This document shows, piece by piece, positions 17,965 through 37,286 of a stretch of 64,000 bases of DNA (position 1 is its first letter; every line of letters begins with the position of its first letter). Source of the stretch: Escherichia coli (GTDB taxonomy: Bacteria > Pseudomonadota > Gammaproteobacteria > Enterobacterales > Enterobacteriaceae); the NCBI RefSeq assembly GCF_030384885.1, contig NZ_CP128613.1. One strand, 5' to 3'. The notes below the pieces were generated by a model. That model made no database searches and was not told where the DNA came from. It worked only from the letters and a program-made list of their open reading frames with translations. The position numbers and the translations under genes are program-made.

Positions 17965-18135
17965 TTCCTGAACTTCAGAATCATCTTGCTGCTGCTTCGA
18001 TTCAGCAAGGATAAAGGGTATGATAGTGAAAAGGGATAAAAGCATTGTCATCTGCGGCAGCTATGAGTAATGTTGGCCCTAACGAATAGCGGTTGCTTAA
18101 ACGAATCCGACTCTCACATTATCAGGGGTATAAAA

Positions 18136-18465
18136 ATGGAAACTACCAAGCCTTCATTCCAGGATGTACTGGAATTTGTTCGTCTGTTCCGTCGTAAGAA
18201 CAAACTGCAACGTGAAATTCAGGACGTTGAGAAAAAGATCCGTGACAACCAGAAGCGCGTCCTGCTGCTGGACAACCTGAGTGATTACATCAAGCCGGGG
18301 ATGAGCGTTGAAGCAATCCAGGGCATCATCGCCAGCATGAAAGGTGACTATGAAGATCGCGTTGACGATTACATCATCAAAAATGCCGAGCTCTCCAAAG
18401 AACGCCGCGATATCTCCAAAAAGCTGAAAGCTATGGGCGAAATGAAAAACGGCGAAGCGAAGTAA
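18136..18465 (+). CDS. yeeX: UPF0265 family protein
   Basis: ORF 18070..18465 with internal start [14 protein letters not shown] and good RBS. Confidence 0.88.
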
Positions 18466-18565
18466 TTCCTGTTTTATTCAATGAGGGTTGCCCGGTAACC
18501 CTCATTGCTCATTGTTTCTTTTCTGTGTATCACCGTCATCACTCCCATCTGATAACCTATTGAAA

Positions 18566-18841
18566 TTAGCGACAGCCTTCTTCTGTATGCAGCAAGGCAA
18601 AAAGTTCTGTAACTCCATTGTTATTAACCGCACTGGTTACTAACACGTTGTGCGCTCCAGCTTCCCGTAACCAACATTTCACCAAAGATATTTGTTCCAT
18701 ACTGGCTAAATCTGCTTTGGTTACTACTCCAATGACCGGGCGATTCATTGACGAGGTAAAGCCTGGCGAAAAAGGTGACCACGGTGCGTCCGCATTAAGT
18801 ACCAGCGCGATAATGTCTGCTTCGCAGGCACTGACCAACAA
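18566..18841 (-). pseudogene. EutP/PduV-family GTPase C-terminal fragment (relic upstream of cobU)
   Basis: 91 aa ORF with ...[12 protein letters not shown]...[11 protein letters not shown]... resembling EutP/PduV C-terminus; no N-terminal P-loop present. Confidence 0.4.
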
Positions 18842-19333
18842 TGCACTGTAAAGGCGGCGATTTTATTGGTGAGGACTGGCAGCAAGATTTCCAGCCTCTT
18901 AACGGTGGGCCTGTGCAATCGTTATCAGATGCGTATAGCGATTATTCAGTGCTGCTATTGATAGCAGCTGAAAGCGAGATATCCGTTCCAGAATGGTTCC
19001 CTCATTCTGAGGGAACGACGGTAATTTTGATTGCAGAACACAATGCCCGTTTGCTGAATGGTCCGGCTGGTGGGGCTGTAGCATTAATCCATTATTTGAA
19101 TGAAATCTGTCATGCCAGAGAAACCGCTGTCAATGACGCATTTTGTCGGACGTTAACACGAGGAAGTCTGGCTATTCCGCAATGCCATCTTCTTTCGTAA
19201 TGGATTGAGAATGCTGGATTTTTAATTATATTACGCGCAGTATTAATCGCGTAAATGTTTTGCGGTCAGCAACGGTGGGGGATCCATTGTTCTGTTCAAT
19301 GAATACCATCATACAATTGAATCAGGAGTCGGT

Positions 19334-19879
19334 ATGATGATTTTGGTGACGGGGGGCGCACGGAGCGGGAAGAGTCGCCACGCAGAGGCGCTTATTGGGG
19401 ACTCTTCACAGGTTCTGTATATCGCCACCTCGCAAATCCTTGATGATGAGATGGCTGCACGGATAGAACATCATCGGCAAGGCCGCCCGGCTCACTGGCG
19501 CACAGTGGAGCGCTGGCAACATCTTGATGAATTAATTCATGCAGACATTAACCCGAATGAGGCTGTGTTGCTGGAATGCGTTACCACAATGGTGACTAAT
19601 CTGTTGTTTGATTATGGCGGCGATAAAGACCCTGATGAATGGGATTATCAGGCGATGGAACAGGCGATTAATGCTGAGATTCAGTCGTTGATTGCTGCCT
19701 GCCAACGTTGCCCCGCAAAGGTTGTATTAGTGACTAATGAAGTGGGAATGGGGATTGTGCCGGAGAGTCGTCTGGCACGACATTTTCGTGATATTGCCGG
19801 GCGGGTAAATCAGCAGCTGGCCGCTGCGGCAAATGAAGTATGGCTGGTGGTTTCGGGTATTGGAGTAAAAATCAAATGA
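19334..19879 (+). CDS. cobU: adenosylcobinamide kinase / adenosylcobinamide-phosphate guanylyltransferase
   Basis: 181 aa, P-loop GGARSGKS. Confidence 0.95.
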
Positions 19880-20619
19880 GTAAATTATTTTGGGCGATGC
19901 TCTCATTTATTACGCGTCTGCCTGTACCGCGTCGCTGGTCCCAGGGACTGGATTTCGAGCATTATTCTCGCGGTATTATTACTTTTCCTTTAATTGGATT
20001 ATTGCTTGGCGCGATTAGCGGGCTGGTCTTCATGGTGCTGCAGGCATGGTGTGGCGTACCACTGGCGGCATTGTTTAGCGTACTTGTGCTGGCGCTGATG
20101 ACCGGGGGATTCCACCTGGACGGCCTCGCTGATACCTGTGATGGCGTATTTTCTGCACGTAGCCGCGATCGCATGTTGGAAATCATGCGTGATAGCCGTT
20201 TAGGCACCCACGGCGGTCTGGCATTGATTTTTGTTGTACTGGCAAAGATTCTGGTGTTAAGCGAGCTGGCTTTGCGTGGCGAACCGATCCTTGCATCGCT
20301 GGCGGCAGCATGTGCGGTCAGCCGTGGGACTGCCGCATTATTGATGTATCGTCATCGTTATGCCCGAGAAGAAGGGCTTGGCAATGTGTTCATTGGCAAA
20401 ATTGATGGGCGACAAACCTGCGTCACACTCGGTTTAGCCGCTATTTTTGCTGCCGTATTATTGCCAGGTATGCATGGTGTGGCTGCTATGGTGGTGACGA
20501 TGGTGGCGATTTTCATCCTCGGTCAGCTTCTCAAACGTACGCTGGGCGGGCAAACCGGCGATACGCTGGGAGCAGCCATAGAGCTTGGTGAACTGGTCTT
20601 CCTGCTGGCACTGCTATAA
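19876..20619 (+). CDS. cobS: cobalamin 5'-phosphate synthase
   Basis: ORF 19840..20619, start MSKLFWAML overlapping cobU stop, polytopic membrane protein. Confidence 0.94.
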
Positions 20620-22762: not shown

Positions 22763-22838
22763 TGGCTCCTCTGACTGGACTCGAACCAGTGACATACGGA
22801 TTAACAGTCCGCCGTTCTACCGACTGAACTACAGAGGA
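22763..22838 (-). tRNA. asnV: tRNA-Asn(GUU)
   Basis: 76-nt reverse complement of canonical tRNA-Asn sequence ending CCA. Confidence 0.97.
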
Positions 22839-33207: not shown

Positions 33208-36200
33208 TCAAATGTTTTTATAACATGTCACATGAGAAAATCCAAGTTTTGCCATTACGCTTTGCTCACCTGTTGCCAGGGAAATTTCGTATTGTTCATT
33301 GGAGTTTGCGGGACTAGATGACCAATACATATCTGAATAAAAATCGGCTTCATTCATGTAATGCCCCATATCTCCCCATTCACTGTACAATGTCCCTATA
33401 CCTCGGGAACGACCCTGGCTTAAAAGGCTTGCACGGGGAAGCATGTAGCCATTGCTACTGCAAAAATTTTCAGCAAGGCTGTATATCATGAAAGAATCGC
33501 CGGAGTTTACCCACCAACTCTTCACCCGGATTTCGTATATATAGCCAGGGCCTCCTGATTTTGGCGTCGCTGTAATCGTTACCCAACTGCTTCCGACATT
33601 TTTAAATGTCACTTTACCGGTAGCGTCAACATCGACCCAGGAGGCAGAGCTTGAAAACTCATAATCAGCCGCCGTTTTGCCCGGGGAAAAGTTGTCATTA
33701 TTCAACTGATAATAAGCCCCAGTGAACCCCTGCGAAGGGAATGTAGTTGTCGGTAGGTTAGCACCATTGACTAACACGGTACCGCTCATTATTTTGTCTT
33801 CTGCGCGAGTGAATTGTATTGTGGTACTCAGACCCGCTTGATGAACACCATTCAATACAGGGATCAGCGTTGCGATACCCTCTCCGCCTCCTATAACAGT
33901 GGCTTTGTAATCACCGTTGATATTTTGACTGTAATCAATTGCGCTAATTTTCACATAGGGCACGTTAGTACCTGATTGCACAAATTCCATCCCTTCAGAA
34001 ACTTTGATCGGATTGCCTGATATATCGTGCAAAACAAGATGTAGCTCAGCACTATCGGTATAGTCCCCTTTTAGTGATGACCGATTGTTCTTAAGGACGG
34101 ACTGCGAGGCGTCTGCCGGGCCTGCCACCAGCGTTATATTAGCTGTTTGCGTTGCACCTGTGCTCGTTCCTGCACTAACAGTTACGCTCCCAGTTCGCGC
34201 ACTTTTCAAGGTGGTTGTCGCAAATCCGTGTTGATCGGTCACCGCTGTTAATGACCCTAATGTGGCAGAGCCACTTTTTAATGCGAAGTTCACATTGACG
34301 CCTTCGACTTGGTTACCACTGCCGTCCTCAACAGTAGCCTTCAGCGTGCTGATATCGCTGTCGTTGGCAGTGATAGTTGACGGATCAGCGCTCAGGCTGA
34401 CCACATGGGCTGTGCTTTGGTTGCCAGTAACTTTCACGATTGTCTGCGCCTGAATAATTACGCCACTAGTGATAGATGCTGTAACCGTATACGTACCGAC
34501 TTTATTGCTGGTCAGAACGACTTGTGCCTCCCCGGAAGGATTGGTTTTCATTGTTTCGCTACTTAACGTTGCATCTTCTGGCGTTACGCTAAAGGTAACG
34601 AGTTCATTGTTCACTGGGGCCCCATTTGGATTGGTTAGCCTTACTGTCAGAGTTGAACCTAATGGGTCATTGATGCCGATAAGTGGACTTGATGCTGTGA
34701 GTGTCAGTTTTAAATCGATTACCACCAGGTCCTTCTCATAAGAGGAGCCATTCGCCAGGGATGCTTGCACAGTATACGAACCGTATCTATTGGGCGTCAT
34801 GGTGACCTCGGCTATACCCTGTGTATTCGTAGAGACCGTATCCTGACTAATGACCATGTTAAAAAATGACGGCTCTGCACTGAATGTCACAAGCTGTTCA
34901 GAAACTGGATTGCCAAACTGGTCGTCGACGTGCGCTTTAACCGCCAGGGGGGTTGCGACCATAACCTGACCTTCAGGCATTTCCAGACTGGTGATCGTCG
35001 CAGAATCAGCATCTGCTTTGACAGTCAACGTTTGCATGATGGTATCTGTAGGTGCATTTGCCAGATTAGCCACAACAATTTTCGTCCCTGCAATGGTGCT
35101 TGTTACAAGAATTTCTGCCTTACCCTGAGCATCTGTTTCAGCGGTGGTGTTACTCAGCGTGGCGGATAAGCCGCGGAAATTGACCTTGATGCCTTCTAAT
35201 GGATTGTCATAAGCGTCAGTGACACTTGCCGTCAGGGTCGCACCCTCGGTTGTGCTGGCGATTAATGAGCTTGATGATGCGGTAAAATCAGCCAGTTTAG
35301 CGGTACTCGCATCGGCAAGCAAAGTCACCGGCCTCGTATCACTGACACCATAACTGTCCACGCTGACCGTCACGGGATAGGTGCCGGACTTCGTACCGCT
35401 TAGTGTAACTTCCGCCTTGCCGTTGATGTCAGTAATGGCGGAACCGCCTTCTCCAAGAGTGAAGCTTGCACTCACATCTGCCGGTAGTGTGAATGTCACC
35501 GGCTCATTGGCTAACGGGTTGCCGTGTCCATCAGTCACCGTTGCCTGAAGTTGGGTCATCCCAACGTTATTGGCGATAAAGTTGTTCTCGGTAACGTTCA
35601 GATTAACCTGCGCTGTGAGCGTATCCGCAATAAAGTTCACCACCAACTGCTCACTCTTACCGCCAGCCATCGCTGCTGTCACGGTATGTGCTCCTGCTTT
35701 TGTACCTTTCAGTGTGACTTTCGCTTTGCCTTCAGCATCAGTAACCGCTTTACCGCCATCGCTCAGCGTGAAGTTTGCCCTCACATCTTCCGGGAGAGTA
35801 AATGTTACTTCAGTGTTGGCTATCGCATTGCCCTCTGTATCTGCGACTGTTGCTGTTAATGTCGTGAGATCGTTATTGTCGGCAATCACCGGATCTTTTG
35901 AGGCTCCCAGCGTGATTTCAGCATTCGCCACGTTCGGCACATAGGTCACTGTTTGTTGTATCGAATCGCCATTGTCGAGCGTTGCCGTCACTTGATAAAC
36001 CCCGGCTTTTGTAGCGGTAAAGCTTGCGTAAAAATGGCCGTAGGAGTTGGTAGTATATATAGCGTTATTACTGGGGGTCACACCTTCACTTGGCGAAACG
36101 CTGATGGTCACCTTATGTTGGGGTACACCGTTTCCGTAATTATCGTTTACCACAACATACAGATCGGTCGTGTTGCCTGCGGAGACTGTATCAGTAAGTG

Positions 36201-37251
36201 CTTGTAACAAGGTGATATGTGCCGTAGACGCATCAGCGTTGACATTAATTGATGTGCTAAGCGTGGAGCTACCATTTTCCAGACTGGCCTCAACGGTATC
36301 CGGCCTCCCTCCTGATTCTGCCGAGGAACGGGTATTGGTATAAGTGACGGTTGCCTTACCCTGTTCGTTCGTTACGGCTTGGCCGCCATTCGTCATTTCA
36401 GCAGAGTTTGTACTGCTGGTGAAACTCACAGTTACACCTTTCACCGGAAAGCTATTATTATCAACGACTGTCGCGGTGATGACGCTGCCGGTGCTATTCT
36501 GCGGGGTACCAGCGATTATGCTGTTTGGGACAGACGTCAACCCAATAATTTTTGCCGCAGCTGTGTCGCCAATAAAGTGCACAGTTTTGTGGTCGCTGGC
36601 ACCATTATTAGCAAGTGATACAGTGACCGTCTGCTCACCAAAGGCAACGCCTACGAGAGTGGCCTGCGCGATGCCAGACTCATTGGTATTACTCTCCCCT
36701 GGGGTGAGGGTGAGGCCTGAAGAGGCTGAGCTGAATGTTACCGGAAGATTGTTCACCTCATTGTCGAACTGGTCTTTAACCGTTGCAGTTAACGTTGCAC
36801 TATCGACGCCATTACCCGTGATCTCATCTTTTGACATCTGCAGGGCAACCTGAGCCGAGGTTTTGTCTGCCACAAATGTTACCGGCTGCGATTCACTGGC
36901 ATTGTTATTAATCAGCGTCGCGGTAACTGTATGCGTGCCCGCTTTTTTACCTTTGAGGGTGACATGCGCTTCCCCATTGGCTTGGGTGACGGTAATACCG
37001 TTATTTTCAAGGGTAAAGTTTGCCGCGACGTCTTGTGGCATGGTGAAATTCACCGCTATCCCCGCCACCGGATGATTCGACGGATCTTTCACTGTAGCTG
37101 TCAGCTGCACACTGTCGCTGTTATTCGTCACCACCTGGTGAGCAGGAATGTTCAGCGTGAGCCGCGCGTTGCTGGCATCGGGAGCAATATTGACTGTCTT
37201 CGAATCGCTATTGCCGTTAGGCAGAGTGGCTTCGGCTGTATGAACACCCAA
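33208..37251 (-). pseudogene. yeeJ: inverse-autotransporter adhesin, 5'-truncated (Big-domain array and C-terminal lectin-like domain retained)
   Basis: 1347 aa ORF of repeated bacterial Ig-like modules (VTLKGxKAGTHTVTA...) ending ...CYKNI; no signal peptide, LysM or beta-barrel region upstream; ORF abuts hypE fragment. Confidence 0.8.
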
Positions 37252-37286
37252 TACCGCGCCTTTTAGGGTAACTTCAGCAAACCGCC

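Follow-up and report, generated by a model that had tools for sequence, protein, structure and literature searches.

The 868-bp gap between yeeX (tmaR) and cobU is very probably the scar of a single, microhomology-mediated deletion that removed 17,254 bp from an ancestral Escherichia pdu+ locus. In the window, that is the whole stretch of 64,000 nucleotides of E. coli DNA analyzed here, the genes follow one another in the order dacD, sbmC, yeeA, yeeX (tmaR), gap, cobU, cobS, cobT, ldtA and tRNA-Asn. With yeeX ending at position 18465 and cobU starting at 19334, the gap covers 18466-19333, in agreement with the first-pass annotation of this sequence, which had described an interval of less than 900 bp. 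Feature annotations were taken from strain 2013C-4282 (PGAP), which is otherwise 99.99% identical to the window. The interval and its flanks comprise the following features:

18136-18465, plus strand: yeeX (tmaR), encoding a DUF496 protein, left flank (Pfam PF04363, E=2.3e-45; annotated as tmaR, WP_000450409.1, in 2013C-4282)
18479-18507, no strand assigned: terminator-like hairpin with a perfect stem, between the convergent ends of yeeX and the pduV remnant (terminator scan: 13-pair stem plus T-rich tail)
18566-18862, minus strand: 3' fragment of pduV, pseudogene (PF10662, TIGR02528; PGAP, 'missing N-terminus')
18861-18864, no strand assigned: probable deletion junction with TTTT microhomology (colinearity with D9 on both sides)
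18841-19200, plus strand: chimeric ORF of 119 aa, probably created by the deletion (ORF list; hypothetical protein WP_000543512.1)
18865-19200, plus strand: 3' 111 codons and stop of a CbiG-N-like gene (colinear with the D9 CDS at L003 19903-20340 from codon 35)
19201-19333, plus strand: conserved cobU leader with a sigma-70-like promoter match (promoter scan and four-haplotype alignment)
19334-19879, plus strand: cobU, right flank, followed by cobS and cobT (PF02283, E=2.1e-64; annotation)

As a reference pdu+ locus, we used that of E. coli D9 (L003 coordinates). Between yeeX and cobU, D9 carries a complete pdu operon running from pduV to pduA on the minus strand, then pduF, pocR, an annotated cobalamin riboswitch and a 145-aa gene, followed by cobUST. 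Alignment revealed that window positions 18000-18864 correspond to D9 L003 1886-2750 (97.8% identity) and positions 18861-19900 to D9 L003 20001-21040 (98.0% identity). These alignments share the four bases TTTT, and the D9 interval is longer by exactly 17,254 bp. This microhomology occurs at each of the two breakpoints in D9 and as a single copy in the window, and reads GTTTT in the D9 and PE164 alleles. The junction joins codon ~49 of pduV to codon ~34 of the CbiG-N-like gene. The E. coli pdu+ loci of D9, EC6868 and LF82 share with the window the position, the flanks and the 3' ends of pduV and the CbiG-like gene, with 98% identity on each side, whereas the central segment is missing from the window. 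With it went 18 pdu genes in full, pduF, pocR and the riboswitch, together with the 5' part of pduV (~49 codons) and 33-34 codons at the start of the CbiG-like gene. A search with the deleted D9 segment across the window found no part of it elsewhere, and scanning 18000-19600 against Rfam at a permissive threshold returned no family and no riboswitch remnant.

D9 and EC6868 have intact copies of both genes hit by the breakpoints, pduV and the CbiG-like gene. Since an insertion could not have rebuilt two complete reading frames, the event is best read as a deletion, with the pdu+ state being ancestral. In the same line, the order pdu-pduF-pocR-144aa-cobS in E. albertii, the one outgroup species looked at in detail for this polarity argument, is the same as in D9. 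The ancestral locus would have consisted of yeeX and, convergent to it, pduV through pduA, followed in the direction of yeeX by pduF, pocR, the cobalamin riboswitch, the 145-aa CbiG-N-like gene and cobUST. One deletion at TTTT would then have left two truncated, convergently abutting gene ends, and the accidental fusion ORF at 18841-19200 would read over the junction between them. The pdu scar probably sits beside an older cbi loss, which had already left the CbiG-N-like relic, and the scar itself would have no function.

On the minus strand, the first-pass annotation had recognized an EutP/PduV-like C-terminal fragment, and profile searches bore this out. The fragment matches PF10662 with E=4.5e-24 (profile positions 58-142 of 143) and TIGR02528 with E=1.3e-27 (96.8 bits, compared with a cutoff of 138); these are strong E-values, beyond what chance would give. 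It comprises the last 98 codons and the stop of a 147-aa PduV GTPase, that is only the C-terminal two thirds, and is 97% identical to residues 49-147 of the intact PduV of D9. Neither a P-loop (GxxxxGK[ST]) nor a DxxG motif is present in the fragment, the corresponding D9 motifs GPSQCGKTS and DTPGE being located in the deleted part. PGAP likewise labels 18566-18862 as an N-terminally truncated pseudogene. The element is a pseudogene fragment of the PduV/EutP family and not a member protein.

The plus-strand ORF, which the same annotation had listed as being of unclear origin, does exist, and its origin can now be given as the 3' part of the CbiG-N-like gene fused to antisense pduV. Its ATG at 18841 lies within antisense pduV and is, by chance, in frame with the CbiG-like remainder. 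The ORF begins with 8 new codons derived from antisense pduV, the junction falling at codons 7-8, and is colinear from the ninth codon onward with the 145-aa 'cobalamin biosynthesis protein' of D9, to which it is ~98% identical. Against NF004463 (cobalt-precorrin-5A hydrolase), the intact D9 protein scores E=2.3e-19 at positions 1-123 of 351 (69.8 bits), and the 119-aa window ORF E=2.6e-4 at positions 41-126 (20.2 bits). Both scores miss the 546-bit cutoff of this profile, and a protein of 145 aa stands against 351 profile positions; the protein resembles the N-terminal domain of CbiG and is no full-length, three-domain CbiG. The CbiG-N match came from NCBIfam only: Pfam scans of the 119-aa ORF and of the intact 145-aa D9 protein returned no family, and a comparison of the 145-aa protein with PDB sequences gave no match. 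Detectable homologues of the 145-aa protein, 136-145 aa in length, are restricted to Escherichia and Shigella; E. coli, E. albertii (144 aa) and E. marmotae each have the reading frame intact.

In pdu+ strains, the 145-aa gene is located directly downstream of the cobalamin riboswitch and upstream of cobUST; in the window copy, its first 33-34 codons, its promoter and the riboswitch are gone. Its dN/dS between D9 and E. albertii is 0.40, compared with 0.00-0.06 for pocR, pduF, pduA, pduC and cobS. Between two pdu+ E. coli the value is 0.13, and in pairs with at least one scar allele it ranges from 0.26 to 0.86, all from small counts. These ratios, with the counts being small, are a hint that some residual constraint may act on the gene in a pdu+ background. 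Conservation of an uninterrupted ORF in these three species and dN/dS values of 0.13 and 0.40 lend support to another reading, which we consider improbable: the gene would be no dead relic and would encode a living small protein of the cobUST operon for cobinamide salvage, under control of the riboswitch. If the protein were living, the scar allele of the window would represent a natural mutant combining an N-terminal truncation with a promoter swap. As a separate observation, D9 L003 19772-19820, which follows the riboswitch and belongs to the segment deleted from the window, translates to MAASFSSFIAVPTGT..., a stretch that presumably resembles the N-terminus of CbiA. HMM scans covering this post-riboswitch stretch, the 26-aa tail and the frames of the cobU leader returned nothing meaningful and did not confirm the CbiA resemblance. 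Were this CbiA start real, the pdu+ locus would hold nested relics, cbiA' and cbiG', followed by cobU.

In K-12, the same interval is occupied by the cryptic prophage CP4-44, as the first-pass annotation had stated. The yeeX-cobU interval of K-12 J53 measures 13,267 bp and contains agn43 (Ag43), yeeR, yeeS, cbeA/cbtA, yeeW, a GTPase pseudogene, a split TonB-receptor pseudogene, IS2 and IS5. BLASTN of the K-12 insert (L004 816-13503) against the 64-kb window gave no match, confirming the absence of CP4-44 and Ag43 sequence from the whole window, including the interval, in which no prophage-derived sequence was found. K-12 aligns to the window up to 18748 and resumes at 19029, leaving 280 bp (18749-19028), including the junction, that are absent from K-12. 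Shorter forms of both relics are kept in K-12, namely a 60-codon PduV end, which we take to be the gene named yoeF, and the 48-codon end of a 'cobalamin biosynthesis protein'.

This comparison bears on whether the window represents the locus before insertion of the island. A pristine empty attachment site, into exactly which the K-12 island inserted in a simple manner, would account for the complete lack of island sequence and for the position of both K-12 island boundaries (18748/18749 and 19028/19029) inside the yeeX-cobU interval, and entry of the island into a scar-type locus would have cost no more than 280 bp, compared with ~17.5 kb for a pdu+ locus. In the window, however, 280 bp with the scar junction separate the two island flanks. 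No intermediate exists either: among the ~4,580 genomes of neither scar nor pdu+ type, none keeps any part of window positions 18763-18962. The signs of an empty site are missing as well. Searches for att-site remnants detected direct repeats neither at the ends of the K-12 island nor in the interval, and no tRNA in the interval, the nearest being tRNA-Asn at 22763-22838, and a repeat search for inverted repeats in the interval returned the yeeX terminator hairpin at 18479-18507 alone. The left end of the K-12 island, in turn, abuts a transposase fragment, and its right end lies ~95 bp from IS5, which suggests an IS-associated replacement at the island ends. On balance, we regard the pristine-site reading as doubtful. 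The earlier proposal of a pre-insertion state stands insofar as no island sequence is present; the interval itself is a derived pdu-deletion scar, with the K-12 flanks 280 bp apart. That the island entered a scar-type locus, replacing 280 bp, rather than a pdu+ locus, with replacement of 17.5 kb, is a possibility that we put forward tentatively.

The opposite direction, in which a K-12-like ancestor lost CP4-44 by clean excision or deletion, had also been proposed and would fit a short interval devoid of island sequence. The window cannot be derived from K-12 by excision, though, because a deletion cannot restore the missing 280 bp (18749-19028), which are lacking in K-12-type, island-bearing genomes and are colinear with the intact pduV and CbiG-like gene of pdu+ strains. 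Single-nucleotide polymorphisms (SNPs) in the right flank and a 9-bp indel further set the window apart from K-12. We consider this origin very unlikely and refuted, barring re-import of the 280 bp by recombination from a scar-type donor, which would again trace the sequence to the scar allele. Along similar lines, the minus-strand fragment might be thought to be left over from the GTPase of CP4-44 itself, that is to be degraded prophage, since K-12 CP4-44 does contain a GTPase pseudogene (annotated 'GTPase family protein', presumably the gene named yeeP). There is next to no room for this idea: the fragment falls into the PduV/EutP family and shares 97% identity with PduV from a complete pdu operon that occupies the same place beside yeeX, and the BLASTN search with the K-12 island, GTPase pseudogene included, matched nothing in the window. 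The 'GTPase relic' of the first-pass annotation is therefore a real fragment, with its identity corrected to a pduV remnant unrelated to the GTPase pseudogene of the island.

To place the deletion scar in a population context, we used a set of 5,426 complete E. coli genomes. The whole 868-bp interval is intact in 201 of them (megablast) and split in most others. Likewise, a 200-bp probe centered on the junction aligned in one piece in exactly 201 genomes, a scar-junction frequency of 3.7%, and was split at bases 99-102 in ~646 others; pduC was found in 643/5,426 genomes. A probe for the K-12-type boundary between the PduV remnant and the island was covered in 4,158/5,426 genomes (~77%). The locus has three alternative alleles: pdu+, scar and CP4-44/PAI-cobU island.

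Five scar alleles, 4-7.5% apart, were read base by base. All have an identical junction and an adjacent A where pdu+ strains have G, whereas their flanking SNPs match different pdu+ haplotypes. The four bases just past TTTT (18865-18868) vary among the five alleles (ATTG, ATCC, ATCG, ATCT) more than their surroundings do. Because the junction and the A are shared and yet the flanking SNPs are those of different pdu+ haplotypes, the data point to an old scar allele of single origin that homologous recombination has carried between E. coli lineages. A divergence of 4-7.5% among scar alleles is high and needs great age or frequent recombination; independent, recurrent deletions are a less likely source of it, as the five alleles share the junction and the scar-specific base. 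Strain 503025 (L006 1501-1958) carries a fourth allele, with an even shorter interval of 458 bp and a further deletion of 410 bp corresponding to window positions 18741-19150, and the scar junction is gone. The left breakpoint of this deletion is only 8 bp away from the boundary of the K-12 island. We rejected the allele as a product of island excision, since the SNPs in its right flank are unlike those of K-12; more likely, a scar-type or pdu+ locus underwent a secondary deletion.

Directly upstream of cobU, the 133-bp leader (19201-19333) shows 0-2 differences from the window across the four-haplotype alignment, whereas the relic coding sequence upstream of it differs by ~5% plus a 9-bp indel among the four haplotypes. 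Between K-12 and the window, the 172 bp upstream of the leader contain 14 mismatches and a 9-bp indel. The promoter scan placed a sigma-70-like match, TTGAGA-16-TATATT, at 19205-19232 (10/12 matched). The leader at 19201-19333 is plausibly the proximal cobU promoter, and it is kept also in island-bearing strains such as K-12. With the control by PocR and the riboswitch upstream of cobUST lost, expression of cobUST would then proceed from this conserved proximal leader and promoter.

Several further observations concern other parts of the window and its relatives. Compared with 2013C-4282, the window lacks 7,155 bp, with a junction at 37279-37283 (5-bp overlap) that is covered in one piece by 0/5,426 complete E. 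coli genomes. This loss joins a truncated gene for a giant Ig-like adhesin, a yeeJ homologue, to the middle of a hypE-like gene; the adhesin ORF (33208-37251, minus strand) encodes 1,347 aa in the window, as opposed to 7,989 nt in 2013C-4282. After tRNA-Ser (~43,800), window positions 43884-64000 no longer match 2013C-4282, and the source strain therefore carries different DNA, presumably another island, at this tRNA-Ser. In the E. albertii contig (L008 10436-10957 and downstream), no gene is called at the place of cobU, and ldtA directly follows cobS with no cobT called; with pdu intact, this species may be in the process of losing its cobinamide-salvage operon.

Loss of cob/pdu functions in E. 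coli was reportedly described by Lawrence & Roth (J Bacteriol 1995, Genetics 1996), with cobUST kept, cbi lost and pdu lost in most strains. Relative to that account, the scar represents a within-species pdu-pocR deletion beside the older cbi loss, and the mapped junction and the frequency of 3.7% come from the present analysis. The interval occupied by CP4-44 in K-12 is also that of the ExPEC island PAI-cobU, the name given to a larger ExPEC version of the island with Hma and Fbp (review PMC7545054); the window differs from both in having no island sequence and in the extra 280 bp missing from island-bearing genomes. Gene tables of STEC O156:H25 and O182:H25 list yeeA, a hypothetical gene, yoeF, cobU and cobS with no island between them (PMC5359238), and presence or absence of pdu is a recognized polymorphism, with gain and loss of pdu in ST372 (PMC9997745). 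In these two papers the junction is unmapped and the ORFs are unidentified, whereas both are mapped and identified here for the window. Our literature search on pdu together with CP4-44 found no paper, and the papers naming yoeF give gene lists only. The scar is an ordinary allele, already annotated in ~200 public complete genomes and known in kind.

None of this should surprise a specialist, and its value is mainly corrective: neither the PduV fragment next to yeeX nor the 'cobalamin biosynthesis protein' stub that precedes cobU is a prophage gene, both being ancestral pdu/cbi remnants. The deletion would have abolished B12-dependent, microcompartment-based utilization of 1,2-propanediol, and a short interval accordingly predicts a strain unable to use this substrate. 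Use of 1,2-propanediol has been linked to gut colonization and host association (AIEC; canine ST372, PMC9997745). With its alternative pdu+, scar and island states, the locus may serve as a simple three-allele marker for E. coli population genomics.
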